Source: Candidatus Jettenia sp.
GTDB lineage: Bacteria; Planctomycetota; Brocadiia; Brocadiales; Brocadiaceae
Length of the DNA stretch: 32,000 bases
Assembly: GCA_021650895.1 (NCBI GenBank)
Contig: CP091278.1
Location: 323,736 to 355,735 of the forward strand
Direction of reading: 5' to 3'
In this document: positions 5,180 to 25,059 of the stretch, piece by piece
How positions within the stretch are numbered: the stretch's first letter is position 1
How the letters are laid out: each line of letters begins with the position of its first letter
Made by a program: the position numbers and the translations under genes
Notes under the pieces: generated by a model
Told to the model about the DNA's origin: nothing
Database searches by the model: none
The model's input: only the letters and a program-made list of their open reading frames with translations

Positions 5180-5241
5180 CCTACGTCTTAATTATTAAGG
5201 CTATACGCCCCCGGCAGGGATATAGCCGATGTAGATGTAGG

Positions 5242-5259: not shown

Positions 5260-5641
5260 ATACCCCCGCTTGAATACCCGCACAGGGATAAGCACCTCTA
5301 AAGGGTTGTCCTGCAATCCAACGATTCCAGGCAAGAATTTTAAGAGATTCTTTAAGTATCTTAGTTATATCATATTATGATAGTTTTGATTTGATTATGG
5401 AGTAGTTTGTGTTATTATAAGGGAACTTAATCAAGTTGGCACTTGTTCTACCACCATAGAAATGATTATGTTAGAAATATTTAGGGTATAAAAAAGTAAA
5501 TAAATAGTGTATAATTAATACCAATAGTGAATAATTTTTATTTGATTTACTGGAGAAGGAAATGGTTAATTTTAAAATTTCTATGATAGAGATCAGGCAT
5601 CAAACTTACCTTCAAAGGTTTTTAGAAGGGAGGGGGATGAT

Positions 5642-7345: not shown

Positions 7346-7660
7346 TATAAAAGTTATCTCCATCGAAAATGAGATGTGAGAGTATCCATTCCTCAGGAAA
7401 CATGGTCTTATGTAATACCGTTACTGCCAGAACGTTGCTTCTTTTCCTACGAAATTCTTTATTCAGCATGGACAAACCTTCCCGCTTAAAGCCTAATGGT
7501 ATAAGGTTTGTTCATGCCACCTCAAAGAACAAAGCATATAGGTAATGATGGGCTTGACACCGAATCGATAAGCTGATCAAAATCTTTACCTGTCTGACAT
7601 TCGAGTTTTGGATTTGCATAATCTACGATAGTCCTCCATGTCACTCCCGAATGCCCCTGT

Positions 7661-7689
7661 GCGGGTTCAGGTTTATAACCTGAACCCGC
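7661..7689. repeat. Hairpin GCGGGTTCAGGTT-TAT-AACCTGAACCCGC
   Basis: 13-bp perfect stem. It shares the GAACCCGCAA tail with the hairpin at 7758-7782. Confidence 0.7.
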
Positions 7690-7757
7690 AATTTGGAATA
7701 CTTTCTTATGTGTTTAACCATGAAAACGCTGTGAGCTATCGACCATGCAAAATATAG

Positions 7758-7782
7758 GGGTTCAATTTACAAAATTGAACCC
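7758..7782. repeat. Hairpin GGGTTCAATTT-ACA-AAATTGAACCC
   Basis: 11-bp perfect stem, followed by GCAA as in the hairpin at 7661-7689. Confidence 0.7.
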
Positions 7783-7850
7783 GCAAGGGTGTGAGATATT
7801 AAGCAAATAACATTCCCTGGTTTACCTCTTTCCCATGAGTTGTATCGTTT

Positions 7851-7865
7851 TGTGCCATGTCACAT
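7851..7865 (+). promoter_or_regulatory. Candidate operator-like motif TGTGCCATGTCACAT
   Basis: Near-palindromic 14-mer TGTGnCA/TGnCACA. Two more copies lie at 9981-9994 and 10015-10028. Confidence 0.3.
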
Positions 7866-8244
7866 TCTCGCAATGACACATCTTTGTGACGTGGCACGTT
7901 TTTTCAACGTATCATACGAACTATTCCATTGCGTGCCAATTTAATTCGATTAAATTTCAATTATACCAGCAATAAAGTAGTTCTTTGGACAAAAAAGACC
8001 CAGGGAGCATTACTGATCTCATATGAGAGTCTGTGGAGAGGGAATGTTTTCCGCGTATAATTTTCAAAATAAGAGAATTTACAGGCATTCCACAATAAAA
8101 ATTTAATTATTCTTTATTCCTTATACAACATTGGCACAATTTTTTCTATATAAGCTGTGTAGAAAAAGTAAAAGTATCTTTTGTTGAAGAGCATAAGGTA
8201 AATTACTCAAAAGCTATAGTTTGTTTTAATCTTAGGGAGGATTA

Positions 8245-9948: not shown

Positions 9949-9980
9949 CCATTCCTTAGTCTGTATCTTCCTCACGCATA

Positions 9981-10028
9981 TGTGTCATGTCGCAGTGTGT
10001 GACAAGACACTTCTGTGTCATGTCACAT
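9981..10028 (+). promoter_or_regulatory. Two direct copies of the TGTGTCATGTC(G/A)CA motif, 34 bp apart
   Basis: Copies at 9981-9994 and 10015-10028, starting about 30 nt after the stop codon of paralog 2. Confidence 0.3.
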
Positions 10029-10567
10029 TTCATGTTGGTAAAATATGTACGATAATCTGATCCTGAAAGCATATGTGAATAGCCTTATCTATTTGTTATA
10101 AAAAGATATAAGAACGGTCTGTTCTGGTTATACATAATGAATTCATGATGAAATTCATCGTGTAGATTAAGAGTCAATTCTGGTTGAATGTTGTGCCATC
10201 TTACCTATGATTCTGGATTATCGAACATGTTAGAAAAACCATGCTTATGTAGCCTTATGATTTAGTATCTTGTAGCACAAAAGGTATGGAAGACCTGTCC
10301 TGCAGTAATTGAAATTTCATAAGATTATATGTTAGCTAAATTTATGCACATACCATATTGAAATTCTGTTAAAATTTAGCGCTTTAAATCAATGATATAA
10401 AGCTTTTTTCTTTTCTCTGTTTCCTCTTTGCGTTTGTACATTAATGGTCTGTTTTTTGCTTACAAGACTATGAGAAGTAAGCTGCTTTTTAATAAAAACT
10501 TAAGAATATGTATAGGAATTTCAAAGTTTTTCATGATACCGTTAACACATCCCTAATTCCAATTTGT

Positions 10568-10710
10568 AGAGACGCAAGATGCTGCGTCTCTCCAGGGAAA
10601 TGAACCCACCCCTAACCCCTCCCAAAGAGGGGACTTTTTTATTCCCCTCTTGGGAGGGGTTAGGGGTGGGTAAAAAGCCGTTGGGTTTTGTCGTTTAAAA
10701 CTCAGTCTAA
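10568..10710. repeat. Family-D composite palindromic element (intact copy)
   Basis: Hairpin AGAGACGCA-AGATGC-TGCGTCTCT (10568-10591), then ~29-bp inverted arms ACCCACCCCTAACCCCTCCC.. / ..GGGAGGGGTTAGGGGTGGGT (10604-10671), then a tail. A second copy at 13861-14750 is split. Confidence 0.75.
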
Positions 10711-10805
10711 TTTATTTGTTATTAAGAGTATGATACTGGTAGGTTATCAAAGTTCTGATAAGAAAAATACCTTATTACCCTGTTTTGTAAATTGGAGATT
10801 TCAGA

Positions 10806-11963
10806 TTGGAGATATCAAAATTTATTTATACATTGACTGAAAATGAACAGGCAAGGCTATTGCTCGCTGGCTTGAATGACCTTGCGTATATCTATGATAC
10901 AGAGGGAAATATTGTATTTGTAAACAAAGTATTTGAGAAGCTAACAGGACATAAAGCGGAAGAATTCTGTGGAAAACCATTCACGTCCCTTTTTGAAGAA
11001 GATGATATAAAAAAGGCACTGGACACTTATACAAGAACGCTTCAGGGGGAAAGCCCGCACTATGAAATCTATTTTAGAAATACAAAAGTATTCTGTGAGT
11101 ATAAGAATTCTCCTTTGACAGATGAGGGGGGAAATATAATTGGAGTTGCTGGTATTGCCAGAGATATTACCCTCCGTAAGGAACGCGAAGAAAAATTGAA
11201 AGCACTTAACAAATCTTTAGAAAAACGGGTAGTTGAACATTCAACAAAACTCATGAAGATAAATGAAGAATTAACAGAAGAAATGAACGATCATAAACGG
11301 ATAGAGACAGAATTCAAACAAGATATTGAGAAGTTACAGAGGTCTTTAAGGATAATTATTCATATTCTTGCCTCTACGATTGAGTCGAAAGACATTTTTG
11401 CGGCGGATCACCAAAAACGTGTAACCCGGCTTGCCCGATGTATAGCAGAAGAGATGGGTCTTTTAAAGGACAGGGTTGATAGTATCTGTTTGGCAGCCGC
11501 TCTCCATGATATAGGAAAAGTGTCTGTGCCGGCAGAGATCCTTGGAAAAGTTGAGCAGCTCACCGAGAGTGAGTTGAATGTGCTTAAGGCTCATTCGAGG
11601 GTAGGCTATGATATAGTAAGAGAAATAGAATTTCCTTCCCCTGTTGCTCAAATTGTGCTTCAGCATCATGAGAGAATTGATGGTTCCGGATATCCCATGC
11701 GTCTGACAAGTAAAGATATACTTTTGGAAGCCAAGATTTTAAGTGTGGCCGATGTTGTAGAGGCGATATCCTTTCCCCGTCCTTATCGGTCAACCTTTGG
11801 TCTGGATAATGCGCTGGAGGAGATCTCCCGAAACAAGGGCATTCTTTACGATTTTAATGTGGTGAACGCCTGTCTGACTGTTTTTCATGAAAAAGGATTT
11901 ACCTTTGAACAGGAATTATACTCAAATGTAAAACTGCTCGATGACGTTTTATTGAGGAGATAA
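10806..11963 (+). CDS. PAS-domain HD-GYP phosphohydrolase (c-di-GMP phosphodiesterase family)
   Basis: HD motif ALHDIGK and HHERIDGSGYP. TTG start with a GGAGA Shine-Dalgarno 7 nt upstream; there is no nearby in-frame ATG. Confidence 0.85.
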   Translation: MEISKFIYTLTENEQARLLLAGLNDLAYIYDTEGNIVFVNKVFEKLTGHKAEEFCGKPFTSLFEEDDIKKALDTYTRTLQGESPHYEIYFRNTKVFCEYKNSPLTDEGGNIIGVAGIARDITLRKEREEKLKALNKSLEKRVVEHSTKLMKINEELTEEMNDHKRIETEFKQDIEKLQRSLRIIIHILASTIESKDIFAADHQKRVTRLARCIAEEMGLLKDRVDSICLAAALHDIGKVSVPAEILGKVEQLTESELNVLKAHSRVGYDIVREIEFPSPVAQIVLQHHERIDGSGYPMRLTSKDILLEAKILSVADVVEAISFPRPYRSTFGLDNALEEISRNKGILYDFNVVNACLTVFHEKGFTFEQELYSNVKLLDDVLLRR

Positions 11964-12159
11964 TTTTGTTACCTAATAGTGGGATACAGATTAGCACAGA
12001 TAAGTACAAATAAAATAATGATGCGGGTGTTTTATGTAACTTACCCAATAGGTAATTAACTGTGCTTCTCTCTACGAATAAAAAATCTGTGTTCTTTATC
12101 GTCGTATTTCATAACACAAGTGTAAAGTCTGGAGTACCTTCGAAAGAGGATAATAGTAC

Positions 12160-12438
12160 ATGAGAACCAATAAATTCTTTGTATGTCCAAACTGTGGCAA
12201 TATCAAAAAATTTAAAGTATTTACGAGTAATTTTCAAATAGTTACACAATCCCCGGAATTAGGAATACGCATGAATGAAAGCGGTGTTTTGCCTAATTTG
12301 CGGCAGGCAGATAATTATATTGAATGTCAGTTGTGTTTTAAAAAATCAGAATACGATGCAGCAGTAAATCTTGGTGAGAAATATATCAAAGACATATCAA
12401 ATCAACCCAGAGAATTAAGGCGGTATACTGAGATATAA
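12160..12438 (+). CDS. Small Zn-ribbon protein of unknown function
   Basis: 92 aa with CPNC ... CQLC pairs. AGAGGA Shine-Dalgarno upstream. I recognise no family. Confidence 0.55.
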   Translation: MRTNKFFVCPNCGNIKKFKVFTSNFQIVTQSPELGIRMNESGVLPNLRQADNYIECQLCFKKSEYDAAVNLGEKYIKDISNQPRELRRYTEI

Positions 12439-12464
12439 AAAGTAGTTAATCTGGCAAAGCAAAG

Positions 12465-12482
12465 TGTATGCTATAACATACA
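12465..12482 (+). promoter_or_regulatory. Candidate enhancer (UAS) site 1: TGTATG-N6-CATACA
   Basis: Perfect 6-bp half sites. It shares the 11-mer ATAACATACAG with the site at 12564-12580. Confidence 0.4.
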
Positions 12483-12563
12483 GTGTTGTATGATTTAAAA
12501 ACAGACAAACATGCATATAAAGATTTTATTTTAGAATACTTATGACAATTTATAAGTAAAACA

Positions 12564-12580
12564 GTATGAATAACATACAG
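12564..12580 (+). promoter_or_regulatory. Candidate enhancer (UAS) site 2: GTATG-N5-CATAC
   Basis: GTATGAATAACATACAG, about 100 bp from site 1 and about 145 bp upstream of the -24/-12 element. Confidence 0.4.
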
Positions 12581-12708
12581 AAAGTACGAATAAAAATTTC
12601 TCTTTATGGAAAAGGGATGCTATAATAAACTAAATACAGGTATTGTAATAAGTTATGTTTTAAATAGTTATATATTATCCTTGTAGAAATTTTCGCATAA
12701 GGCGTTCT

Positions 12709-12725
12709 TGGCAGGTACATTGCTA
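12709..12725 (+). promoter_or_regulatory. Sigma-54 (-24/-12) promoter candidate for the PAS-GGDEF gene
   Basis: TGGCAG-GTACA-TTGCTA compared with the consensus TGGCAC-N5-TTGCW: correct GG/GC spacing and one mismatch. The 3' end of the element (12725) lies 85 nt upstream of ATG 12810. Confidence 0.6.
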
Positions 12726-12809
12726 ATGATGGCAATGTTACACAGCACTAAAAATAATTTTGCATGATATCTTGTGTTTGGTGTCTGTTTGTAGAAATAA
12801 ACAAGATTA

Positions 12810-13814
12810 ATGAAAGATGCAATGAAGCTAATTGAAAATTATAAAAAAATAAGAGTTTTGAATAAAGCATTAAATATAGTGCCAAATCACGTGAAGACGG
12901 AAGTAAACCATTATGCCCTAGTTGAAACATTTGTAGATGCTATTATATCGGCAAATCAGGAAGGGCGTATTGTTTATTGTAACCCTGCAGCAAAAAAGAT
13001 GTTTGGATATCAGGAAGAGATCATTGGTTGCGATATTACTGTCCTTATGCCTGAACGATATCGGCTAAAATATCAAATAGGTATGACGAAGTATATAAAT
13101 ACAGGGCTAACAAGGATTATAGGACAAACCATAGAGTCAGTTGGTTTAAAGAAGGATGGTATTGAATTTCCCATAGAGTTATCTGTATCGGCATCCATGG
13201 TTGATGACCGATATTTTTTTACCGGTATTATCCGGGATATTACTGAAAGAAAGTGTACGGAGTTTAAACTCCTTGAGTCTAATAGGAAATTGCAAGAGCT
13301 TTCTATTAAGGATAGTTTAACGAATTTATATAATCGGCGCCATACTTTTCATGTAATGGAAATTGAATTCAACAGGGCAAAAAGATATCAAAAATCCCTC
13401 TCATGTTTAATGATCGATATAGATTATTTTAAAAATATCAATGATCTCTATGGTCATCCCTTTGGAGATAAAGTACTCGTACATTTCTCCTCCTTTTTAC
13501 TCAATATGATACGCTCTACCGATATAGTTTCCCGATATGGAGGTGAAGAGTTTCTTGTTATTCTTCCCGATGTAGATATAAAGGGTGCTATGGACTTTGC
13601 TGAAAGATTACGGGAAGCCGTATCTAAACATACTATAGAGGATAAAGAAAGGAATATAAATGCAGCATTGAGCATCAGTGTTGGAGTCAGCTCTTTTACA
13701 GATAGTACACTTAATAAAGAAGAAATAATAAGCCAGGCAGATAAAGCCCTTTACGAGGCCAAGCGATCGGGAAGAAACAGAGTTTGCTGTATTCAAACTT
13801 GTAAGACTGTTTAA
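12810..13814 (+). CDS. PAS-GGDEF diguanylate cyclase
   Basis: GGEEF active site (RYGGEEF) with an RxxD I-site (RSTD) five residues upstream. N-terminal PAS domain. Confidence 0.9.
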   Translation: MKDAMKLIENYKKIRVLNKALNIVPNHVKTEVNHYALVETFVDAIISANQEGRIVYCNPAAKKMFGYQEEIIGCDITVLMPERYRLKYQIGMTKYINTGLTRIIGQTIESVGLKKDGIEFPIELSVSASMVDDRYFFTGIIRDITERKCTEFKLLESNRKLQELSIKDSLTNLYNRRHTFHVMEIEFNRAKRYQKSLSCLMIDIDYFKNINDLYGHPFGDKVLVHFSSFLLNMIRSTDIVSRYGGEEFLVILPDVDIKGAMDFAERLREAVSKHTIEDKERNINAALSISVGVSSFTDSTLNKEEIISQADKALYEAKRSGRNRVCCIQTCKTV

Positions 13815-13860
13815 AAAGAATAACTGTATCCGTATCTTTAAAATACTAACACAGGACGTG

Positions 13861-14750
13861 GAGACGCAAGATTTTGCGTCTCTCAGGGGAATGAACCCAC
13901 CCTTAACCCCATATACATCAAGCTAAAATAGGGAAACGGTGAAGAATAACATAATCCCCCTTAATCCCCTTTTAGAAAACTTATCCTTATCCACATCTTT
14001 AAATACCACAAAGAGCACGAAGTACACGAAGAATAAGAGAGTTCCAAATCTCAATAAATTCTTTTTATGATCGATCCCTTCTTGAGGCGATGTGAGTGTG
14101 AGTGAGAAAACACTGACACTGACACTAAACAAAAAGCAACACACCCCTACCTCAATTGTAAAGACGCAAAATCTTGCGTCTCTACGCCCTTTCTTCGTGT
14201 ACTTCGTGCTCTTTGTGGTATTTAAAGATGTGGGTAAGGATAAGTTTAAAAAGGGGGAAAGAAAGATAAATTTAGAAAAGAGGGAACGAGGGATTTCCCC
14301 CTTTTCTAAAACACCCATATATTTTCCCCTTTTTTAAAGGGGGATCAAGGGGGATTGTAGGTGGCTTGTTATTCTTCACCATTTCCCTATTTTAGCTTGA
14401 TGCATATGCCCCTAACCTCCCTTTTAGAAAAAGGGGGAAAAGAAGGATAAGTTTAGAAAAGCAGGGTGGCACGGACAAACCGTGTCCCCGTACGTCTTGA
14501 ACGGGGACATGGTTTGTCCATGGTGTTCGAATACACCCGCGGATAGGGAATATACCACACTGACAAACAGAGTTTGTCAGTGCCACCCAGGAAGAGGCTT
14601 AAAAAGAGAATAAAAATTTCACGAGAGACGCCCCCGGCGAGATATCTCTATATTCTAAAGATGTGGGTAAGGATAAGCTGGACGGGAGGGGATTGAGGGG
14701 TGGGTAAAAAAAGTTGCTGGATTTTATCTTTTAAAACCCAACCTAACTAA
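13861..14750. repeat. Nested repeat block: a family-D element split by about 770 bp of other repeats
   Basis: The left D half (13861-13910) and right D half (about 14685-14745) match 10568-10710. Between them lie a large imperfect palindrome (arms 13911-14033 and 14191-14407) and family-E copy 1. The 21-mer AAAGATGTGGGTAAGGATAAG occurs at 14224-14244 and 14657-14677, and in reverse orientation at 13980-14000. Confidence 0.75.
14464..14677 (+). repeat. Family-E element copy 1, containing a 125-nt cloverleaf-like module (14464-14588)
   Basis: About 90% identical by eye to 17495-17711. Module helices: P1 GGGTGGC/GCCACCC, P2 a 19-bp hairpin, P3 GGTGT-TCGAAT-ACACC, P4 a 10-bp hairpin. Confidence 0.75.
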
Positions 14751-15137: not shown

Positions 15138-15208
15138 GCCGTTTTCTCAGTGACAGATACTTGTATGATAAGTAGTTACAATAATTCCCATTATTGCATG
15201 AAATACGT

Positions 15209-15586
15209 ATGTACATTGGCATTGATATAATAGAAATAAAACGTATTGAAAGATTATTTTCTTCTAATGAGGGTTTTTTGAAGAAAATTTATACGGAAAA
15301 AGAAGTAGAATACTGTAATCAAAAAAAGAATAAATATCAGCATTTTGCAGCGCGTTTTGCTACCAAAGAGGCTGTATTCAAGGCATTAGGGACGGGCTGG
15401 ATAGGCACTATGAAATGGACAGATATTGAGTTGTTAAACGACGAAATGGGAAAACCGTATTTGAACCTTTATGGAAGTGTAAAAGAACTGGCAAATAAAA
15501 AGAATATTAACAATATTTCTGTATCAGTATCCCATTGCCGGGATTATGCTATTGCTCAGGTATTATTAGTGCCAGGTAGTATATGA
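15209..15586 (+). CDS. acpS: Holo-[acyl-carrier-protein] synthase (4'-phosphopantetheinyl transferase)
   Basis: MYIGIDIIEIKRI.. N-terminus, FAARFATKEAVFKALG and ISVSHCRDYAIAQV motifs, and about 125 aa are all typical of AcpS. The ORF track opens at TTG 15194; ATG 15209 fits the family N-terminus. Confidence 0.85.
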   Translation: MYIGIDIIEIKRIERLFSSNEGFLKKIYTEKEVEYCNQKKNKYQHFAARFATKEAVFKALGTGWIGTMKWTDIELLNDEMGKPYLNLYGSVKELANKKNINNISVSVSHCRDYAIAQVLLVPGSI

Positions 15587-15676: not shown

Positions 15677-17155
15677 ATGAAAAAACTCGTACTGATTAAT
15701 CCTCATCCGATTGGAAATGTTGGGGAAGAAAACGTTTCTGTGCTAAATCAGATGCCGGTGAATCTCGGTTATCTTAAGAGATTAACACCGCAGCATTGGC
15801 AGGTTGATATTATTGATGAGACCCAGGAGCTTGCTATTGACAGCGCAGGGAATATTACTTTCAGTGGGGCAGATCTGGTGGGTATTACATCGGTAAGTTA
15901 TCAGGCTCATCGCGCCTACCAAATAGCTACTGCCTGCAAAAAAAAAGGCATACCTGTCATTATGGGTGGAATTCATGCTACGAGCTATCCGGAAGAGGTT
16001 GCAAAATATGTAGATTGTGTTGTTACCAGAGAGGCTATAACAATATGGGAAAAGATACTGGCTGATTTTGAAAATGGTGTTCTTCAAAAGAGATACGATG
16101 GTAATCTGACACCTATGGAGCTTTATCGTGATCTGAGGTCTGATAGGGAATATTTGAAGAATAAATACAAATATAGATATTCAGGCATCATAACGACGGC
16201 CGGATGCCCGTTTAGTTGCGAGTTTTGTTCTGTTCCTCAGTTTCAGGGTAAAAAATATCGGGAAAGGCCTATTGAAGACGTCCTGGATGAATTAGAATCC
16301 ATTAAGGGTCAATATCGTGGCCTGATATTAACGGATGAAAACTTTTATGGACATAGTAAAAAATCCAACGAGCGTGTTCGTGCACTTTTCAAGGGTATGG
16401 TAGAAAGAGGTATTTATCAAAATTGGTTTGGTTTTACCTCTCTTAATATTTACTCAGATGACGAAACTCTTGAATATATGGTCAAGAGCGGATGCGTTGG
16501 GGTGCTTATTGGAATTGAATCTATCAACGAAGAAGCCCTGAAAACCATGAATAAAAATGTGAATTTGCGTATCTCAATAGAGAAGTATTTCGAGGCAATT
16601 GCTAACATCCGTAAACACGGTCTTGCTGTATGGGGGACTATGGTTTTCGGAAACGATGCCGATACGCCTGAGACATTTAAGCAAGTTGCTGATTTTGTTT
16701 TAGACTCTCACGTAGATATTATGACGTGCGGCATTTTATGCCCATTTATTAACACGCCGCTTTATCATAGATTAAAAAGTGATAATAGACTTTTTCGGAC
16801 AAATTTTCCTGAGGACTGGAAGTATTATACATCTCATCACCTTACCTATATCCTTAAGAATATGTCTCTCCAGGAGCTTATTGATGGCTTTCAATATCTC
16901 TATGATAAAATTTATGCTACGGAGGTGTTACGACAAAGATTCCAGAATGCTAAGGACGTGTTGAGTAAGAATATGAATGCCGCTATGTTTGCATTCAGGG
17001 TCAATTTAGACTGGCAGAACGTGTATCAGCACTTGATCCAAAATTTAAAAGAATTGCAGGCATCAGGATTTTACGATGAGGTCCTGAAGCTCTATAATGA
17101 ATCGGAAAGACAAGGGAAAAAAACATCATTGACGCCAATTGAGGTCCCATCATAA
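15677..17155 (+). CDS. B12-binding-domain radical SAM enzyme (class B rSAM)
   Basis: N-terminal Rossmann-like cobalamin domain (..VIMGGIHAT..). CPFSCEFC CX3CX2C cluster motif with Cys codons at 16205, 16217 and 16226. GAGGGA Shine-Dalgarno. Confidence 0.85.
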   Translation: MKKLVLINPHPIGNVGEENVSVLNQMPVNLGYLKRLTPQHWQVDIIDETQELAIDSAGNITFSGADLVGITSVSYQAHRAYQIATACKKKGIPVIMGGIHATSYPEEVAKYVDCVVTREAITIWEKILADFENGVLQKRYDGNLTPMELYRDLRSDREYLKNKYKYRYSGIITTAGCPFSCEFCSVPQFQGKKYRERPIEDVLDELESIKGQYRGLILTDENFYGHSKKSNERVRALFKGMVERGIYQNWFGFTSLNIYSDDETLEYMVKSGCVGVLIGIESINEEALKTMNKNVNLRISIEKYFEAIANIRKHGLAVWGTMVFGNDADTPETFKQVADFVLDSHVDIMTCGILCPFINTPLYHRLKSDNRLFRTNFPEDWKYYTSHHLTYILKNMSLQELIDGFQYLYDKIYATEVLRQRFQNAKDVLSKNMNAAMFAFRVNLDWQNVYQHLIQNLKELQASGFYDEVLKLYNESERQGKKTSLTPIEVPS

Positions 17156-17365: not shown

Positions 17366-17711
17366 TATCTTTACCCACAAGCATTCTCCCCCTTTTCTAA
17401 AGGGGGTTAGGGGGGATTAGAGGGAAACATGGACACACGTTGTTCTTTTTACCGCTCAGAGAGGTAAATTTGAGTAGTGCGATAAGACAAAACGGGGTGG
17501 CACGGACAAACCGTGTCCCCGTACGCCTTGAACGGGGACATGGTTTGTCCGTGTTGTTCGAATACACCCGTGGATAGGGAATATACCACACTGACAAACG
17601 GAGTTTGTCAGTGCCACCCAGGAATGGGCTTGCAGAGAATAACAATTTCACGAGAGACGTCCCCGGCCAGACATCTTTTCATAGTATTCTAAAGATGTGG
17701 GTAAGGATAAG
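17366..17711 (+). mobile_element. Family-E element copy 2 (MITE-like, with inverted termini), containing the 125-nt module at 17495-17619
   Basis: Left end CTTATCTTTACCCACA (17366-) and right end TGTGGGTAAGGATAAG (-17711) are inverted. The core matches 14464-14677. Confidence 0.65.
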
Positions 17712-17732
17712 GACAAGAATGGAGCATGGGTT

Positions 17733-18428
17733 ATGCCATCTACAAAGGATAGAGTTGATAATCTTGAGAGGGTACTTGCAGAATATATTAAAAATATTGG
17801 CAATGCCCAGATGCAGACCGAAAGAGAAATTCGGGAATTCAAGGAAGAGGTGAAAGAGTTTAAAGATGAGATGAAGGAGTTTAAAGATGAAATGAAGGAA
17901 TTCAAAGACGAGATGAAGGAGTTCAAAGATGAAATGAAGGAATTTAAGGACGAGATGAAGGAATTCAAGGACGAGATGAGGGAAGATAGAAGAAATATGA
18001 ACAAAAAGTGGGGTGAAATTGCCAATAAGATGGGGACGGTGGTAGAAGATATCGTAGCGCCCAATATCCCACGGATTGCACAAGAATATTTTCAATGCGA
18101 AGATGCGGAATTTTTTGGGTTAAGGGTAACGAAAAGAAATTCAAAGGATAAATCAAGAAGCAGGGAGTTTGATATAATCGCTGTATACGATGATAAGATA
18201 CTCATAAACGAAACTAAATCTTCACCAAGGATTGATTACATCAACGAATTTATCGAGGTACTGAAAGAGGTTTACGATTACTTTCCCGAGTATAAAGGAA
18301 AAAGAATAATTCCCATATTTTCTTCCCTTTATATTCCGGAAAATGTGGTAACGTATCTTACGAAAGTGAAAGTTTACGCCATGGCTATGAAGGATGATGT
18401 CATGGAGTTGTTGAATCCCCATATTTGA
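17733..18428 (+). CDS. Coiled-coil heptad-repeat protein with a C-terminal PD-(D/E)XK nuclease-fold domain (DUF3782-like architecture)
   Basis: Seven EFK(D/E)E(M/V)(K/R) heptads, then ..EFDIIAV..x..INETKS (a D..ExK motif). The ORF-track ATG at 17697 lies inside the repeated 21-mer, so ATG 17733 is preferred. Confidence 0.7.
   Translation: MPSTKDRVDNLERVLAEYIKNIGNAQMQTEREIREFKEEVKEFKDEMKEFKDEMKEFKDEMKEFKDEMKEFKDEMKEFKDEMREDRRNMNKKWGEIANKMGTVVEDIVAPNIPRIAQEYFQCEDAEFFGLRVTKRNSKDKSRSREFDIIAVYDDKILINETKSSPRIDYINEFIEVLKEVYDYFPEYKGKRIIPIFSSLYIPENVVTYLTKVKVYAMAMKDDVMELLNPHI
17835..17981 (+). repeat. 7 x 21-bp in-frame tandem repeat
   Basis: Units start at 17835, 17856, 17877, 17898, 17919, 17940 and 17961. 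Units 2-6 differ only at synonymous third positions. Confidence 0.9.
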
Positions 18429-18495
18429 TATAACGGGCAATCTCCTTTTGACAGATACGCATCAATTTTAAAAATATTCAAATGAGGTATTATTT

Positions 18496-19728
18496 CTGAT
18501 TACTGAAAAAAATAAGTCAAAAGTAGTAATTACCGGATTAGGACTGGTTACCCCTGTTGGGATAGGTGTTCAAAAAAGTTGGGAATCCTTTATCCATGGC
18601 CGCGATGGAGCTAATGAGATGAAGTCATTCGATACCTCCCATTACAAGGTTCACCGTTCTTGTGAGGTAAAGGATTTTCATCTGGATGTTGAATTAGAGA
18701 ATCAAATAAAGGAAAATACCATCCATAAATATGTTTATTATGCAGCCCGGGAGGCATTGCAGGAAAGCGGTTTGTTGCATGATAAGAGCAGCTTTAATAA
18801 GGAACGTTTTGGTATTGCCATGGGAACCTTAGCGGCTGAATTAACACCTCATGAAAGACTTTTACGATTACATACCTCAAAAAAAGATAACGGTTTTGAT
18901 AAGATTGTTGCTGCTGTTTATCCTCCAAATTCTATTACGAATATCCTTGCTCAATATTTTCACTTTGAAGGGCCTACCATGGTCTCACTGAATGCCTGTT
19001 CTTCAGGTAATCATGCCATTGCCTGGGCTTACGACCTTCTTATAGAAAATAAGGTAGATGTTGTAATGGTTGGTGGAGGGGATATGATCCCTCAAACGGA
19101 ATTTACTCATTTCCATAATCTCAAAGCGCTTGCTCCTGAACACTGTCAGCCTTTTGATAAAAACAGGCAAGGACTCATGATCGGAGAAGGAGCCGGTATC
19201 TTGATCATGGAACGTTATGAATTTGCCAGGAAAAGGGGGGCAGTTATTATTGCTGAAATGGCGGGTTATGGATTAAGCTGTGATGGATTCCATATGACAG
19301 CACCTCATCCGGAAGGTGAAGGTGCTGTAAAATGTATGAGTGATGCGCTAAAAATGGCAAGACTTTCTCCGTCTGATATTGGCTATATCAATGCACATGG
19401 TACGGGTACACCACATAATGATAAGGCGGAGACTATTGCTATAAAGCACCTATTCAGAGATCATGCTTATAACATTCCCTGCAGTTCTACAAAATCCATG
19501 ATAGGTCATCTTATGGGTGCAGCGAGTGCTGTAGAATCTGTTATATGCTGCCTTGCATTACGATACGGAATATTGCCTCCAACAATTCATTACCATACAC
19601 CTGATCCGGAGTGTGACCTTGATTACGTACCTAATAGGGCACGGGAGTTAACCGTTAAGCATGTTTTAAATAACTCATTTGCCTTTGGTGGTAATAACGC
19701 TACCACGATATTCAGTAAAATAGAATAG
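18496..19728 (+). CDS. Beta-ketoacyl-ACP synthase (KAS I/II, FabF-like), catalytically intact
   Basis: Cys-His-His triad present: NACSSG (Cys codon 18997-18999), NAHGTGT, GHLMG. The conserved N-terminus KVVITGLGLVTPVG is encoded upstream of the first ATG (18619). The start is therefore placed at CTG 18496 (or ATT 18499), after a GAGGT Shine-Dalgarno at 18484-18488. Confidence 0.8.
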   Translation: MITEKNKSKVVITGLGLVTPVGIGVQKSWESFIHGRDGANEMKSFDTSHYKVHRSCEVKDFHLDVELENQIKENTIHKYVYYAAREALQESGLLHDKSSFNKERFGIAMGTLAAELTPHERLLRLHTSKKDNGFDKIVAAVYPPNSITNILAQYFHFEGPTMVSLNACSSGNHAIAWAYDLLIENKVDVVMVGGGDMIPQTEFTHFHNLKALAPEHCQPFDKNRQGLMIGEGAGILIMERYEFARKRGAVIIAEMAGYGLSCDGFHMTAPHPEGEGAVKCMSDALKMARLSPSDIGYINAHGTGTPHNDKAETIAIKHLFRDHAYNIPCSSTKSMIGHLMGAASAVESVICCLALRYGILPPTIHYHTPDPECDLDYVPNRARELTVKHVLNNSFAFGGNNATTIFSKIE

Positions 19729-19741
19729 TCTTTACATACTT

Positions 19742-20971
19742 ATGAAACGAAGAGTCGTAGTTACAGGAATAGGGATTGTATCACCTCTTGGATTTACCAA
19801 AGAGGATTTTTGGAATAACCTCATAGAGGGAAAATCGGGCATTGTGCCAATGACATCTCTTGATCTCTCACCATATACATGCAAGCTTGGCGGAGAGGTT
19901 AGAGACCTTCATCCCGAAATCTATCTTGGTAATAAAGGTTTGAAGTACTTACATAAAGGCACAAGGTTCTTAGGATCGGCCACGAAGATGGCGCTTGATG
20001 ATGCAAAGTTACCGCAGGATGGTTCTTTATCGGATCAAACAGGTGTGGTTATTGGGTCGTCTTTAGGCAATTTTTCTGAAACAACAGATTATTTCTATGA
20101 GATTATCAGAAATAATCCTTCAGAATTATCGCCGATGGTCAGCTATGATGTCGCATTAAATTCTTCAATTAACTACGTTTCTGTTACCTTTAAGATAAAG
20201 GGACTTGCACGGACTATATCAGCAGGTTTCACATCAAGTGCGGATGCGATAGGGAATGCATATGGCATAATTCAGCGAGATATGGCCAAAGTTATTGTTG
20301 CGGGTGGAGTCGAGCAGATTTCTATCGACCTGTATCTCATATTTTATCTGCGAGGTCTCTTATCAGGTCTTGATGGCACAAAGGAGGCTAGTTTACCCTT
20401 CGATAATAAAAGGAATGGTTTTGTAATGTCTGAAGGCAGTTATGTGGTTATTCTCGAAGAGCTTCAGCATGCTCTGGACAGAGGAGCGCCTATCTACGCA
20501 GAAGTAAGAGGCTTTGGGAACACCTTTGTAGGCGGTAAAAATTATTCGAAAGAGGAAAGGACACGCCGTGTTGAAAGGGCCATGTACAGCGCCTTAGAAG
20601 AAGCAGATATTCAGAAAGAAACTATTGATCTTATCAGCGCAAATGCAAATGGATGCAAAATGCAGGACGCTATTGAAGCACAGGCAATCCAATCCTTTTA
20701 TGGCTCAAAGGGCAATGATATTCCTATCTCGGCAATAAAATCGAATATGGGTGAATCTTATGGTGCCGCAGGTGCTGCTCAGTTTATTTCTACTGTAATG
20801 TCTATACATACCAGCACAATACCCCACATCATTAATCACAACGAAAAAGATCCGAAAGTTAATCTAAACCTTATCCTGCAGAATCCCGTCAGGAAAGAAA
20901 TTCAAAATGCAATGGTAAACACCATGGATTACGATGGAAATAATTCATGTTTGGTGATAAGTAAATTATGA
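19742..20971 (+). CDS. Ketosynthase-like protein lacking the catalytic triad (chain-length-factor/KS-beta-like partner)
   Basis: Full-length thiolase-fold KS homologue. Cys->Phe (codon 20228-20230), His->Asn (20642-20644), His->Glu (20753-20755). It starts 13 nt after the KS stop. Confidence 0.8.
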   Translation: MKRRVVVTGIGIVSPLGFTKEDFWNNLIEGKSGIVPMTSLDLSPYTCKLGGEVRDLHPEIYLGNKGLKYLHKGTRFLGSATKMALDDAKLPQDGSLSDQTGVVIGSSLGNFSETTDYFYEIIRNNPSELSPMVSYDVALNSSINYVSVTFKIKGLARTISAGFTSSADAIGNAYGIIQRDMAKVIVAGGVEQISIDLYLIFYLRGLLSGLDGTKEASLPFDNKRNGFVMSEGSYVVILEELQHALDRGAPIYAEVRGFGNTFVGGKNYSKEERTRRVERAMYSALEEADIQKETIDLISANANGCKMQDAIEAQAIQSFYGSKGNDIPISAIKSNMGESYGAAGAAQFISTVMSIHTSTIPHIINHNEKDPKVNLNLILQNPVRKEIQNAMVNTMDYDGNNSCLVISKL

Positions 20972-21369
20972 GCAAACTGTTTGAAGAAATACCTGTCGGT
21001 CAGATGGCAGTAAAAAACAGGATAATCATGTCTGCCATGGATTTGGGATTTACTTCTGACGGTACAGTGAATGACCGGATTATTCGTTTTTACGAGGATC
21101 GTGCCAAAGGTGGTGTTGGTCTTATTGTTGTAGGCGGTTGTTATCCGGAAATGAATGGTAAGGTTTGGAAGAGTATTATTGGATTAGACAAGGATGAGCT
21201 TATTCCGGGATTACGAAGATTAACCGATACTGTTCATGCCTATCAGGTGCGTATCGCCGCTCAGTTGCTTCACGGTGGCCGCAGCGCCTCATCCTTCTTT
21301 ACAAAATGCAGCCTGTTTCTCCCTCTCCCCTGGTGCACAGAAGTATCAAACAGGAACCTCATGCCCTGA
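20968..21369 (+). CDS. N-terminal fragment of a 2,4-dienoyl-CoA reductase/enoate reductase (OYE-like FMN domain); out of frame after about codon 113
   Basis: Homology (..AAQLLHGGR..) ends near 21305, and the remaining 20 codons are unrelated. The start overlaps the previous stop codon (ATGA). Confidence 0.7.
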   Translation: MSKLFEEIPVGQMAVKNRIIMSAMDLGFTSDGTVNDRIIRFYEDRAKGGVGLIVVGGCYPEMNGKVWKSIIGLDKDELIPGLRRLTDTVHAYQVRIAAQLLHGGRSASSFFTKCSLFLPLPWCTEVSNRNLMP

Positions 21370-22988
21370 CAGTTTCAGAGATTAAAACGGTTATCGGTAA
21401 TTATGTCAGCGCAACCGTAAGGGCAAAAAAGGCCGGCTTTGATGCCGTGGAGCTTCACGGTGGTATGGGATATCTCATTAATCAATTCCTTTCAAAGGCT
21501 ACCAATAAGCGTGATGATGAGTATGGTGGAAGTCTTGAAAACAGAGTTCGTTTTGCCAGGGAGATAATAATCGCCATAAAAGAAGCCGTTGGGAAGGACT
21601 ATCCTATCATCTTTCGAATGTCAGGAGATGATCTTGTTGCAGAAGGGCTCAAAATAGATGAGAGTCTGGAAATTGCCCGGATGTTAGAGCAATCAGGTGC
21701 TGATGCCTTTAACGTATCTCCTGGCTGGCATGAGAGCAGAACGCCTATCCTATCAATGATTATTCCACGGATGGCTTATACCTTTCTTTCACAAAGGATC
21801 AAATCATGCGTAAAAGTTCCGGTAATTGCCTCAGTCAGAATAAACGATCTTACCCTGGCCGAAGAGATCTTAGGCAATGAGCAGGCAGACATGGTATCCC
21901 TTGGCAGACCACTCATCGTAGATCCTGATTTGCCGAATAAATACAAAAACGGGCAATTTGATGATATCAGAACATGTATTGCCTGTAATCAGGGTTGCTT
22001 TGATTCTTTGCTGAATTTTAAATCCGTTTCCTGTACGTATAATGCAATGGCAGGACATGAAGGTGAATATAAAATAATTCCATCGAGCAAACCGAAAAAG
22101 GTGGTGGTCGTAGGTGGAGGACCTGCCGGTATGGAAGCTGCCCGTGTTTTGGCATTACGGGGACACAGGGTTACCTTGTATGAGAGGAAAAAACACCTGG
22201 GCGGTCAATTACGGTATGCCTTTATTCCTCCGGGACGTGAAGAAATACAAAATATTATCACCTACCTGGAAAAGCAGATTTTCAGGCTTAAGGTACATAT
22301 AAAAACCGGAAAAGAGGCTGATTTACCAACGTTACAGGAGGAACATCCCGATGCCATAGTTGTAGCCACGGGCGGAAATCCTGTCATGCCTAATCTTCCC
22401 GGTATAAAAGGGAAACAGGTATATACAGCAAGTACTATATTGGAGGGAAAAGTTTTACCGGGAAAGGACGTGGTCATACTTGGCGGTGGAACTGTAGGAT
22501 GTGAGGTGGCACTGCACATAGCCAAACAGGGAACAATGCGGCCTGATGTGGCTTGTTTTCTGCTAAAACACAAGGTGCTCAGCGACAGGGATGTCATTGA
22601 ATACACTACAAGGGGAAATAAGAATGTCACCATTCTGGAAATGAAAAAGAAAATAGGTGGCGGATTTGGTATTTCCACACGATGGGTTATTCTCAATGAG
22701 TTAAAAGACGCGGGGGTAAAAGAAATAACAGAAGTGCGGGTGAAGGAAATAATACATACTAGTGAAAATGGCAGAAAAACGGAAGGTGTCGTTTATGAAA
22801 AGGGCGGAAAAGATTATTTTATCAAGGCAGATACCGTTATTATTGCTGTCGGGTACAGTCCTTATAACGATATACAAAAGCAGATAGAAGGAAAGTTTCC
22901 GGAGATATATTGTATTGGTGATTGCGTTAAGGTTCGCACTGCATTAGAAGCTATTCACGAAGGTTTTGAAGTTGCCTTAAAGATATAA
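21306..22988 (+). CDS. C-terminal 560 aa of the same FadH-type reductase (rest of the TIM barrel, 4Fe-4S, FAD/NAD(P)H domains)
   Basis: PSPL..ELHGGMGYLINQFLS, CIACNQGC..C cluster motif, VVVVGGGPAGMEAA dinucleotide fold. No Shine-Dalgarno before ATG 21306. Confidence 0.8.
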   Translation: MQPVSPSPLVHRSIKQEPHALTVSEIKTVIGNYVSATVRAKKAGFDAVELHGGMGYLINQFLSKATNKRDDEYGGSLENRVRFAREIIIAIKEAVGKDYPIIFRMSGDDLVAEGLKIDESLEIARMLEQSGADAFNVSPGWHESRTPILSMIIPRMAYTFLSQRIKSCVKVPVIASVRINDLTLAEEILGNEQADMVSLGRPLIVDPDLPNKYKNGQFDDIRTCIACNQGCFDSLLNFKSVSCTYNAMAGHEGEYKIIPSSKPKKVVVVGGGPAGMEAARVLALRGHRVTLYERKKHLGGQLRYAFIPPGREEIQNIITYLEKQIFRLKVHIKTGKEADLPTLQEEHPDAIVVATGGNPVMPNLPGIKGKQVYTASTILEGKVLPGKDVVILGGGTVGCEVALHIAKQGTMRPDVACFLLKHKVLSDRDVIEYTTRGNKNVTILEMKKKIGGGFGISTRWVILNELKDAGVKEITEVRVKEIIHTSENGRKTEGVVYEKGGKDYFIKADTVIIAVGYSPYNDIQKQIEGKFPEIYCIGDCVKVRTALEAIHEGFEVALKI

Positions 22989-23045
22989 CATGTTTTTACC
23001 CCGGATAGATACAGACAAGCATAGATAACAATAAGGGTTTTGACA

Positions 23046-23852
23046 ATGAAAGATATCCGCATGAATCGTGGTGATAACTCCGGTTATGATCACATTGAAT
23101 TTGAAGAAATCAGGACAAATAATGGTAAGGCCATCGGTATTATTTATCTGAAAAAACCTCCACGAAACTCTATAGGTTCATGGCTTCTGGATGCCCTCTA
23201 TGATAAGATGGATCAATATGAGGGTGATGAGAGAGTGGGCGCTATTATTATTGCCAGTAAACTAAGGGGCGTCTTTAGTGACGGCGCTGACCGTGATGAG
23301 CTCTTTGGCACCTGGATATCGGGTCTTGTAGCTGATAAGAATTATGAGCGGTTTCATCGCGCTCATGAGATGTTTGTGGAGATTGAAAATTGTAAAAAGC
23401 CTGTTATTGCTGCCATAAACGGAGTTACGATCGGTGCTGGTTTAGAGCTTGCTATGCTGTGTGACCTGCGTATTGCATCTGAACTTTCCTTTTTCAGCCT
23501 GCCAGAGGCAAAACCTGAACTGAGTATTATTCCCGGTCTTGGAGGCACACAGCGTTTGCCCCGTTATATCGGTATGGCACGTGCTAAGGAGATGCTGTTT
23601 TTAGGAAAGATGATCCGTGCTGAGACTGCTTTGGAATGGGGTCTCATTAATCAAATTTCACCTCATAAAGAGGTTATAGATCATGCCATAGTTTTGGCAG
23701 AAACGCTGTTAAAACGAGATGCAAGGGCACTCAAAGAGATGAAGAAATGTATCAATTTTGCGGGAGAGAACGATATCCTGAAAGGTATTGAATATGAGGT
23801 GGGTCTCTTTGCAGAGATGATGCGATTAAAATTTTCGAATAAGGGTAAATAA
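23046..23852 (+). CDS. Enoyl-CoA hydratase/isomerase (crotonase) family protein
   Basis: Oxyanion and catalytic motifs ING..GAGLELAMLCD and LPEAKPELSIIPGLGGTQRL; both catalytic Glu positions are present. The ORF track opens at TTG 23040. Confidence 0.85.
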   Translation: MKDIRMNRGDNSGYDHIEFEEIRTNNGKAIGIIYLKKPPRNSIGSWLLDALYDKMDQYEGDERVGAIIIASKLRGVFSDGADRDELFGTWISGLVADKNYERFHRAHEMFVEIENCKKPVIAAINGVTIGAGLELAMLCDLRIASELSFFSLPEAKPELSIIPGLGGTQRLPRYIGMARAKEMLFLGKMIRAETALEWGLINQISPHKEVIDHAIVLAETLLKRDARALKEMKKCINFAGENDILKGIEYEVGLFAEMMRLKFSNKGK

Positions 23853-23923: not shown

Positions 23924-24667
23924 ATGGAGTTCAAGGATACCGTAGCAATAGTTACGGGTGGTACCCGGGGTATAGGCAAGTCAATCGCATTAGAACTGGC
24001 AAAAAACGGCTGCAACATAGCCTTTAACTACAATAAAAATACCGATGCTGCCCATCTTCTGGTAAAGGAAATTGAATCGATGGGTACAAAGGCCATTTCT
24101 TTCCAGGTAAATGCAGCCAGCTTTGAAGGTGCTAAGAATATGGTAAAAGAAGTGAAGGATAGATTTGGAAAGATTGATTTCCTGGTAAATAATGCCGGTA
24201 TTACCCGTGATAAACTCCTCGCTTTAATGGCAGAGAATGATTGGGATGATGTTATCAATACCAATCTCAAAAGTGTTTATAATTTTTCTAAATCGGTAAT
24301 TACCCAGATGATCAAACAAAAATCCGGTAGTATCCTGAATATAACCTCAGTAAGCGGAATAACGGGAATAGCAGGTCAGGTAAACTATTCTTCCTCCAAG
24401 GCCGGTATGATAGGATTTACCAAGGCCCTTGCCAAAGAGGTGGGGAAGGCAAATATTACGGTAAATGCAATAGCCTGCGGCTTTATTGAAACAGATATGA
24501 CGGCAGTTTTACCTCAGGAATATAAGGATAAAATGATTGAGATGATTCCGGTAAGAAGATTTGGCACACCTGATGATGTCGCTAAAGCGGCGATTTTCCT
24601 GTTATCAGACCATGCTAAATACATTACCGGTCATGTAATTAGTGTCGATGGTGGTTTAGCAATGTAG
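23924..24667 (+). CDS. fabG: 3-oxoacyl-ACP reductase (SDR)
   Basis: TGGTRGIGKS, NNAG, S..YSSSK catalytic motif, 247 aa. AAGGAGG Shine-Dalgarno. Confidence 0.85.
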   Translation: MEFKDTVAIVTGGTRGIGKSIALELAKNGCNIAFNYNKNTDAAHLLVKEIESMGTKAISFQVNAASFEGAKNMVKEVKDRFGKIDFLVNNAGITRDKLLALMAENDWDDVINTNLKSVYNFSKSVITQMIKQKSGSILNITSVSGITGIAGQVNYSSSKAGMIGFTKALAKEVGKANITVNAIACGFIETDMTAVLPQEYKDKMIEMIPVRRFGTPDDVAKAAIFLLSDHAKYITGHVISVDGGLAM

Positions 24668-24747: not shown

Positions 24748-25059
24748 ATGCTATTTTTATTAAAAGTTGAAATAAAGCAAATGCCCCCTTTGCCGGTAAA
24801 AGACTTTTTGGAATATGTTATAAAAGAATGGGAATATTTTTCACGATTTCAAAGGCGTGGCAAGATTATAGCGGGTGGGAAATTAGCTGGTAAGAGGGGG
24901 GCTGCGGCTATAATCGATGCTGAATCCAATGAAGAGATGGAAGAGATCGTCTCAAAATTACCGCTCTTTCCGTTCTTTACCGATATAGAAATTACGCCTC
25001 TTGTGCCTATGGAGAAGGCACTTCTGGATACCAAGAGGATTCATTCGCTGATGAAGTAG
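24748..25059 (+). CDS. Muconolactone delta-isomerase-fold small protein
   Basis: 103 aa. MLF..K.. N-terminus and the LPLFPFFTDIEITPL signature align, by my recollection, with CatC-type muconolactone isomerases (LPLFPYMDIEV). Confidence 0.55.
   Translation: MLFLLKVEIKQMPPLPVKDFLEYVIKEWEYFSRFQRRGKIIAGGKLAGKRGAAAIIDAESNEEMEEIVSKLPLFPFFTDIEITPLVPMEKALLDTKRIHSLMK

Follow-up and report, generated by a model that had tools for sequence, protein, structure and literature searches.

We describe here two adjacent ketosynthase (KS) genes, KS1 and KS2, from Candidatus Jettenia sp. (assembly GCA_021650895.1), located in a 32,000-nt stretch of contig CP091278.1 (positions 323,736 to 355,735 of the forward strand; G+C content, 39.7%). 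This whole stretch is called the window below, and all coordinates refer to it. KS1 is an intact FabF-type KS, and KS2 is a full-length FabF paralog from which the catalytic triad has been lost. The two probably constitute a second FabF-derived KS/inactive-KS pair of anammox bacteria, in which KS2 would act like a chain length factor (CLF) in a heterodimer serving a module of eight genes. A KS/CLF-like role for KS1/KS2 is well supported by homology. The triad-less, Phe-type partner itself is not new, having been published in 2009, and the functional logic was published in 2026 for a sister pair. Added here are the invariance of the substituted residues across 121 sequences, a single clade of triad-less proteins, the adjacency of the two genes in 66 of 69 loci, a contrast in the tunnel motifs of the two pairs, the eight-gene operon, and a supercluster outside the anammox bacteria.

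KS1 (18496 to 19728, plus strand) and KS2 (19742 to 20971, plus strand) encode proteins of 410 and 409 residues, respectively, with the same two-domain KS architecture (PF00109 and PF02801), and 13 nt separate the KS1 stop from the KS2 start. KS1 was assigned from alignment, Pfam, NCBIfam, and its position in the tree, and KS2 was assigned from alignment and Pfam. KS2 shares 97 to 99% identity with proteins from Jettenia sp. CY-1, J. ecosi, and J. caeni. A preliminary description of this DNA had stated that KS1 keeps the FabF triad and that KS2 carries Cys-to-Phe, His-to-Asn, and His-to-Glu replacements, and both statements were confirmed, codons included. The KS1 triad consists of Cys168 (TGT, 18997 to 18999), His301 within NAHGT (19396 to 19398), and His338 within GHL (19507 to 19509). 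The corresponding KS2 residues are Phe163 (TTC, 20228 to 20230), Asn301 (AAT, 20642 to 20644), and Glu338 (GAA, 20753 to 20755), along with Lys333 (20738 to 20740). In a MAFFT alignment with Escherichia coli and Bacillus subtilis FabF, Phe163, Asn301, and Glu338 occupy the columns of Cys163, His303, and His340, Lys335 of FabF is kept, and the gating Phe400 is replaced by Tyr; KS1 has Cys/His/Lys/His and the gating Phe in the same columns. An HMMER pairwise alignment of KS2 with B. subtilis FabF placed the residues identically, and no Cys or His is hidden at the KS2 active site in these alignments. The KS2 motif ANANGCK supplies Asn301, Asn303, and Cys305, and Gln stands at the position equivalent to FabF Glu349.

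Residue conservation was counted in 121 sequences, namely, the window KS2 and 120 orthologs with 73 to 99% identity. Phe163 and Lys333 are each present in 121 of 121, Glu338 in 120 of 121, and Asn301 in 118 of 121. The active-site substitutions are therefore not noise. A genome scan using one genome per species returned 80 loci, which span Jettenia, Brocadia, Kuenenia, Loosdrechtia, Wunengus, Scalindua, Anammoxibacter, Subterrananammoxibius, and other Brocadiales (50 to 98% identity). Outside the Brocadiales, the same scan returned a few loci from Thermodesulfobacteriota, "delta proteobacterium," and Blastocatellia metagenome-assembled genomes (MAGs), with 39 to 41% identity. The KS2 frame is full length and uninterrupted in about 80 species genomes. 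The sequence upstream of KS2 is long enough at 69 loci, and at 66 of these a KS1 ortholog immediately precedes KS2 in the same orientation, often abutting KS2 or overlapping it by 4 nt in Scalindua and deep-branching lineages, and all aligned KS1 orthologs keep C/H/K/H and the gating Phe.

When 1.84 billion cluster representatives were searched in full with HMMER, many single-domain relatives with 33 to 55% identity were recovered. Most have "GF" at the Cys position and a variable first His position, while Lys and Glu are invariably kept at the remaining two catalytic positions in the relatives examined. About 25 natural fusions (750 to 880 aa; P0123 to P0256) join an intact N-terminal KS (C/H/K/H) to a triad-less C-terminal KS, and several of the C-terminal domains retain the Lys/Glu pair. 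The domain order of the fusions is the gene order of KS1 and KS2. Although they come from more distant relatives, they may be taken as a Rosetta-stone hint of a physical association between a KS and its inactive partner (KS′).

The best solved relatives of KS1 and KS2 are chains B and C of PDB entry 9S5H (E values, 4.6e-121 and 5.4e-90), in both cases ahead of every FabF. Entries 9S5H and 9S5I represent amxFabF2/amxFabFmut of Brocadia fulgida and come from a May 2026 preprint (Granatino et al., bioRxiv, doi 10.64898/2026.05.19.726425). In that study, the Cluster I pair KustE3605/3606 copurified, and amxFabF2 and amxFabFmut were active only together, as seen in malonyl-acyl carrier protein (ACP) decarboxylation, acetoacetyl-ACP formation, and probe cross-linking; amxFabFmut alone gave no decarboxylation, condensation, or cross-linking. 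The crystal structures of amxFabFhet show a heterodimer whose catalytic triad is reached by the amxFabF2 tunnel only. Phe135 and Val139, on a helix-loop-helix of amxFabFmut, line this tunnel and influence chain length preference, and an F135G/V139G double mutant lost discrimination among C6, C8, and C16 probes. Scalindua amxFabFmut crystallized alone as an inactive homodimer with a disordered helix-loop-helix (Granatino et al., 2026).

Identity to the B. fulgida proteins is 47% for KS1 (with amxFabF2) and 39% for KS2 (with amxFabFmut). A search with amxFabFmut returned a separate ortholog family, one member of which (P0293) is encoded on the same 3.76-Mb Jettenia CY-1 chromosome as a KS2 ortholog. 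Phe does not occur at the Cys position of 114 Cluster I sequences, which carry Val (78), Thr (27), Ile (6), or Glu (3) there. On the KS side, KS1 and amxFabF2 have the same tunnel lining residues, Ala110, Ala164, Phe203, and Met337, and the same gate, Phe394 (B. fulgida numbering). On the partner side, Ser134-Tyr-Asp-Val-Ala138 of KS2 (SYDVA; 20141 to 20155, plus strand) aligns with Phe135-Pro-Asn-Thr-Val139 of amxFabFmut (FPNTV); SYDVALN is invariant in the anammox KS2 orthologs, and FPNT is invariant in the 114 Cluster I orthologs. With its different neighbors, the SYDVA motif, and Phe at the Cys position, KS1/KS2 is not the Cluster I pair itself. It is probably of the amxFabFhet kind, in that a subunit with an intact triad is adjacent to a triad-less FabF paralog and the tree and PDB ranking agree on shared descent.

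The tree (neighbor joining, Kimura distances, 407 columns, 200 bootstraps) placed all 44 triad-less proteins in one clade in 200 of 200 bootstraps, with KS2 and amxFabFmut in different subclades, and grouped the KS1 orthologs with amxFabF2 at 99% bootstrap support. The KS1 and KS2 trees are similar in topology. Together with the separate families of the two pairs, these results indicate a single origin of the KS/inactive-KS arrangement from FabF-like ancestors, followed by duplication of the whole pair.

The AlphaFold2 model of KS2 obtained with 71 sequences, Cluster I paralogs among them, had a predicted local distance difference test (pLDDT) score of 89.1 and a predicted template modeling score of 0.91; a shallow alignment of 27 close orthologs gave a pLDDT of 33. 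Only residues 109 to 136 of the former model, a helix-loop-helix, fell below a pLDDT of 50. The top Foldseek match (PDB to April 2026, which predates 9S5H) was B. subtilis FabF, with a template modeling score of 0.90, and the closest structural homolog reported for amxFabFmut is likewise B. subtilis FabF (Granatino et al., 2026). The low-confidence segment coincides with the region disordered in the partnerless amxFabFmut crystal, which is suggestive; alternatively, alignment divergence in this segment may account for it.

In the mechanism that we propose, KS1 and KS2 would be cotranslated and would form an obligate heterodimer. KS1 alone would perform the chemistry, decarboxylating malonyl-ACP and condensing the product with an acyl chain by means of Cys168, His301, Lys, His338, and the gating Phe. 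KS2 would do no chemistry; it would supply the dimer interface, and its SYDVA helix-loop-helix would form one wall of the KS1 acyl tunnel. The Ser and Ala that stand where the sister pair has the constricting Phe135 and Val139 would confer a different, probably wider or longer, acyl specificity: since the F135G/V139G mutant lost chain discrimination, the natural Ser and Ala suggest, by analogy, a wider or longer pocket in KS1/KS2. Phe163 would fill the vestigial active site of KS2. That it probably plugs this inactive site rather than setting chain length is suggested by its strict invariance, in contrast to the variable Val/Thr/Ile/Glu of the sister family. A chain length role for a Phe at the Cys position, as first suggested, is unlikely; Phe163 lies in the vestigial site and not in the KS1 tunnel. 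Lys333-Glu338 and the Gln at the Glu349 position look like a compensating polar network, which would keep the fold. The heterodimer would provide the condensing step of the eight-gene module, and the module would share a pathway with Cluster I, namely, the candidate ladderane lipid pathway. Of the preliminary description, the idea of an active KS with an inert partner is supported by homology to the best solved relatives, with which the tree, the adjacency, and purifying selection agree, while the novelty, the chain length role of Phe, and the kinship with polyketide synthase (PKS) CLFs are not.

Residue pattern, identity, and gene order identify KS1 and KS2 as the Jettenia orthologs of Kuste2804 and Kuste2805 of Kuenenia stuttgartiensis. 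The fabF paralogs of that organism were analyzed by Rattray et al. (2009, Biol Direct 4:8), who described a cluster of acpS (Kuste2802), a B12-binding radical S-adenosylmethionine (SAM) gene (Kuste2803), fabF (Kuste2804), and "fabB" (Kuste2805). Their Table 2 lists Phe163, Asn298, Asn300, Cys302, Lys328, Glu333, and Gln342 for Kuste2805. The Phe/Asn/Glu pattern was therefore already tabulated for the KS2 ortholog in 2009. Kuste2805 was later termed a "noncanonical FabB" (Javidpour et al., 2016, PLoS One). The window pair has the Phe/Asn/Lys/Glu pattern of this group, its AcpS, B12-binding radical SAM, KS, and KS′ genes lie on one strand with one Jettenia insert before the KS, and its identity to the Kuenenia proteins (85% for KS1 and 72% for KS2, measured against the related species K. 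hertensis) is clearly above that to the Cluster I paralogs.

Several observations weigh against a KS1/KS2 heterodimer acting within a ladderane-related module. KS1 and KS2 are separated by 0.3 to 4.4 kb in some Brocadia, and KS2 is found alone at one locus. The published electrostatic asymmetry of the helix-loop-helix and contact helix disfavors homodimers (Granatino et al., 2026); a crude charge count over these elements gave 0 to +1 for KS1 and −4 for KS2 in the Brocadiaceae, but the B. fulgida control gave −3 for both subunits, so that the count misses the published effect and carries no weight either way on heterodimer preference. The window contains no ACP gene. Kuenenia Kuste2804 and Kuste2805, expressed in E. 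coli from separate operons, were insoluble and yielded no new lipid (Javidpour et al., 2016), and the pair is unmentioned in the preprint of Granatino et al. (2026). Related clusters occur in Thermodesulfobacteriota and Acidobacteria MAGs, and Desulfotalea is syntenic yet has no ladderanes (Rattray et al., 2009); because of these two facts, the link of the KS1/KS2 cluster to ladderanes is weak, and the pathway is not ladderane specific as such. Finally, Lys333, Glu338, and Asn301 are more conserved than pure space filling would require, so some residual chemistry or ligand binding may persist.

This last point bears on an older proposal, that Kuste2805 recruits or couples a building block from outside fatty acid synthesis, such as a preformed ladderane unit (Rattray et al., 2009). 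KS2 would then be an enzyme with new chemistry that uses Lys333, Glu338, and Asn301 instead of Cys-His-His. The near invariance of these residues and the retention of the Lys/Glu pair in every triad-less relative examined are what such an enzyme has in its favor, besides its standing as the original proposal in the literature. However, KS2 has no nucleophile at the Cys position, where a Phe cannot be acylated, and the paralog amxFabFmut is inert alone; Granatino et al. (2026) state that their own results refute the stand-alone enzyme. The Lys/Glu/Gln pattern is also explained by a compensating structural network. We regard a stand-alone KS2 enzyme as improbable and have set it aside.

About equally improbable is a KS2 that acts without KS1, either as a homodimeric scaffold or as an ACP- or acyl-binding protein that regulates or sequesters intermediates, with the adjacency of the genes reflecting a shared pathway only. 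The Scalindua amxFabFmut homodimer is a precedent, and the few genomes that separate KS1 from KS2, with the one locus that has KS2 alone, fit this alternative. Against it, that homodimer was inactive and its helix-loop-helix was disordered, KS1 immediately precedes KS2 at 66 of 69 loci, where the stop of the one often overlaps the start of the other, and the trees of the two proteins are alike in topology. The heterodimer of KS1 and KS2 remains the preferred reading.

There is very little probability that the pair is a true type II PKS KS/CLF, aromatic or highly reducing (for example, of the aryl-polyene or ishigamide type), with a secondary metabolite and not a membrane lipid as its product. 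An active KS with an inactive partner is indeed the type II PKS architecture, KS1 matches the ishigamide KS 6KXD (E value, 4.8e-78), and the phytoene desaturase-like and radical SAM genes of related clusters resemble specialized metabolism. However, KS2 scored 229 bits against B. subtilis FabF and 142 bits against the actinorhodin CLF (1TQY_B). Aromatic PKS CLFs carry Gln161 at the Cys position, where KS2 has Phe. The best NCBIfam models of both proteins are FabF models, although KS2 falls below every cutoff (321.9 bits versus 493.75 for the fabF equivalog and 320 versus 387 for the subfamily model) and KS1 passes the NF005589 subfamily (402.7 versus 387) and misses the fabF equivalog (412.6 versus 493.75). 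Among the window genes there is neither a cyclase or aromatase nor an ACP or thioesterase, and the pair is universal in Brocadiales, having been gained at their origin with the Cluster I genes. A kinship of KS2 with type II PKS CLFs gives way to membership in a separate FabF-derived clade, and a CLF of the PKS type was set aside.

The reading of KS2 as a leftover of fabF duplication that is decaying and not expressed has next to no probability and was also set aside: although all of its catalytic residues are lost and it evolves faster than KS1 (identity between Jettenia and Scalindua, 58% for KS2 and 64% for KS1), this reading appears to fail because the frame is intact everywhere, and the conservation of the replaced residues effectively refutes it. 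The translational coupling signatures at KS2 (in the window, its stop codon overlaps the ATG of the next gene as ATGA) and the confidently predicted fold also speak against a remnant.

The start of KS1 is unusual in Jettenia. Position 18496 is a CTG codon, and no ATG, GTG, or TTG lies upstream of the conserved N terminus (KSKVVITGLG). The first canonical start is an ATG at 18619 (Met42), use of which would drop 41 conserved residues. In other genera, KS1 starts with ATG-TCA-AAA just before VVITG, and all four Jettenia assemblies have AAG-TCA-AAA; the ATG start has been lost in the Jettenia lineage. After the upstream in-frame stop, the only start candidates are CTG at 18496 and ATT at 18499, located 7 to 10 nt past a GAGG sequence, and either is plausible but unproven. 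The choice of CTG in the preliminary description was a reasonable guess, since no canonical start precedes the conserved N terminus and AAG replaces the ATG. A mini-open reading frame (ORF) of 5 codons, from an ATG at 18482 to a TGA at 18497 to 18499, overlaps the ATT (TGATT) within 18469 to 18525, an arrangement that would allow termination-reinitiation. Gene callers give truncated KS1 products of 388 and 369 aa.

The genes around the pair are all encoded on the plus strand. Upstream are a holo-ACP synthase gene, the AcpS/Kuste2802 ortholog (15194 to 15586; Pfam ACPS, 4.7e-20; TIGR00516 acpS), and a B12-binding radical SAM gene, the Kuste2803 ortholog (15677 to 17155; Pfam B12-binding, Radical_SAM, and DUF4070). 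AcpS is found upstream of the radical SAM gene in most Brocadiales loci, and the radical SAM gene is 70 to 99% identical and syntenic across the Brocadiales, although its product falls below the TIGR04072 cutoff (80.7 versus 360 bits). Proteins of the Kuste2803 type have been named as candidate ladderane cyclases in the literature (including Rattray et al., 2009). Between the radical SAM gene and KS1 lies a gene for a coiled-coil/repeat protein (17697 to 18428; weak coiled-coil Pfam matches), which contains a 21-nt tandem repeat (7.2 copies, 17834 to 17984) encoding EFKDEMK heptads and has a weak C-terminal match to DUF8196. Among the loci compared, only those of Jettenia and a single further Brocadiaceae locus (L026) have this gene, which is not a conserved operon member.

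Downstream of KS2 is a gene for a FadH/old yellow enzyme (OYE)-type Fe-S flavoprotein of the 2,4-dienoyl-coenzyme A (CoA)/enoate reductase family (20968 to 22988; Pfam Oxidored_FMN and Pyr_redox_2). In the window, it is split into ORFs at 20968 to 21369 and 21306 to 22988 by a 1-nt deletion (A5 to A4) near 21306. The gene is intact (673 aa) in Jettenia CY-1, and the A5 run is present in CY-1 and J. ecosi; the break is likely a homopolymer sequencing error, although it could be a real frameshift. A crotonase-fold enoyl-CoA hydratase/isomerase gene (23040 to 23852; Pfam ECH_1, 4e-48), a FabG 3-oxoacyl-ACP reductase gene (23924 to 24667; TIGR01830, 321.8 bits versus a cutoff of 297.75), and a gene for a small muconolactone isomerase (MIase)-like protein (24748 to 25059; Pfam MIase, 4.2e-14) follow, the last of these ending the conserved block. 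In Scalindua, Jettenia, and deep Brocadiales, FadH/OYE immediately follows KS2 and the MIase-like gene is syntenic; FabG is syntenic as well, and the synteny of the crotonase gene extends over both anammox bacteria and nonanammox relatives.

Synteny was determined by tblastn of the window proteins against all loci. The order AcpS, B12-binding radical SAM, KS1, KS2, FadH/OYE, crotonase, FabG, and MIase-like is contiguous in Jettenia, nearly all Scalindua, and deep-branching Brocadiales (most of these last without the crotonase). Brocadia and Kuenenia keep only the first four genes together, and the half from FadH/OYE to the MIase-like gene is not adjacent in Kuenenia and most Brocadia. Kuste2802-2805, the four genes of the published cluster, form the first half of an ancestral eight-gene block whose second half has moved away in Brocadia and Kuenenia. 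The published cluster is thus extended to a conserved eight-gene module. The block offers candidates for condensation (KS), ketoreduction (FabG), dehydration (crotonase), and enoyl or dienoyl reduction (FadH/OYE), and we infer from this that it may be a self-contained elongation module; it holds no ACP, FabZ, or FabI gene. Neither the Rfam scan nor the tRNA scan gave any match in the window, and promoter and terminator scans of the window were not usefully above the shuffled expectation.

In a few nonanammox genomes, relatives of Cluster I and of the window cluster occur together. One contig (L089, positions 1 to 12051; 56% G+C) begins with a FabA/FabZ-like gene, a KS (C/H/K/H; 65% identity to amxFabF2), and a KS′ (E/G/K/E; 57% to amxFabFmut) and continues with a phytoene desaturase-like gene, three B12-binding radical SAM genes, a KS (59% to KS1), a KS′ (F/A/K/E; 43% to KS2), and a crotonase. 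Two "delta proteobacterium" MAGs (L080 and L083, positions 1 to 12000; 69 to 70% G+C) have an amxFabFmut-like fragment with VNPMEFPNTVLNAPASR upstream of radical SAM genes, followed by a KS (undetected in L083), a KS′ with Phe, a crotonase, FabG, and a further radical SAM gene. In a related MAG (L082), a desaturase-like protein is encoded at the upstream position of the amxFabFmut-like fragment. These superclusters hold three to four B12-binding radical SAM genes. By this contiguity in L089, L080, and L083, Cluster I and the window cluster are two halves of what is elsewhere one supercluster, which suggests one ancestral pathway.

A more specific reading, which we offer tentatively and consider rather unlikely, is that one lipid pathway uses two FabF-type KS/CLF heterodimers that split the work. 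The FPNTV dimer, with its constricted tunnel and preference for C6 to C8, would make or process the short linear part, and the SYDVA dimer, within a self-contained elongation module with the crotonase as dehydratase and FadH/OYE as reductase beside the B12-binding radical SAM protein, would handle the long or bulky (polyunsaturated or cyclized) chain, both in anammox bacteria and in the Thermodesulfobacteriota and Acidobacteria lineages with the fused supercluster. If true, this would be the first step assignment in ladderane-type lipid assembly. Ladderane lipid biosynthesis is a long-standing open problem with few candidate genes, and the existence of two pairs hints at the condensing enzyme that might act on the unusual portion of the chain. 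Two ancient paralogous pairs with identical catalytic-side tunnels and different partner motifs also provide a concrete test of partner-set specificity.

Two further features were observed. The window contains two tandem paralogous sigma-54-type response regulators of 567 aa each (5642 to 7345 and 8245 to 9948), which begin 2,603 nt apart, have 70 to 78% DNA identity in the stretches that are repeated, and are flanked by PAS sensor kinase, HD-GYP-like, and GGDEF genes, with unusually long, ORF-poor spacers of 0.7 to 0.9 kb between them. In a 3.49-Mb Brocadiaceae genome and at an identical locus of B. sapporoensis (L003/L004), seven to eight near-regularly spaced 48-aa ORFs lie downstream of the KS pair on the minus strand (12311 to 14380), beside an ISL3 transposase.

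Four known systems can be compared with KS1/KS2. The closest in descent is Kuste2804/2805, which is orthologous, has the same substituted residues, and has the same order of acpS, B12-binding radical SAM, fabF, and noncanonical KS. The Jettenia block differs in running on into FadH/OYE, crotonase, FabG, and MIase-like genes, which are not adjacent in Kuenenia, and in having an extra repeat protein gene before KS1 and a lost KS1 ATG. The earlier literature gave Kuste2805 no CLF-like role, whereas one is proposed here for KS2. The amxFabF2/amxFabFmut pair is a paralog and not an ortholog. It likewise joins an active FabF-type KS to an adjacent triad-less paralog in which Lys is kept and Glu replaces the second His, and it shares with KS1/KS2 the clades, the organisms, and the KS-side tunnel residues. 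Its neighbors are amxACP, amxFabZ, a phytoene desaturase-like gene, and a radical SAM gene, whereas those of KS1/KS2 are AcpS, radical SAM, FadH/OYE, crotonase, and FabG genes; its heterodimer and activity are demonstrated, and those of KS1/KS2 are predicted from it.

The type II PKS KS/CLFs (actinorhodin, 1TQY; ishigamide Iga11/Iga12, 6KXD) also consist of a catalytic subunit and an inactive, tunnel-shaping homolog encoded by adjacent genes, but they are a separate lineage, KS2 lacks the Gln at the Cys position, and the window lacks PKS tailoring genes. Canonical FabF of E. coli and B. subtilis has the same fold and domains, and KS1 keeps each of its catalytic residues. It differs in being homodimeric, whereas KS1/KS2 is presumed to be heterodimeric with a KS2 devoid of the triad, and in its pocket, where Ile108 and Leu342 of FabF are replaced by Ala and Met in KS1.

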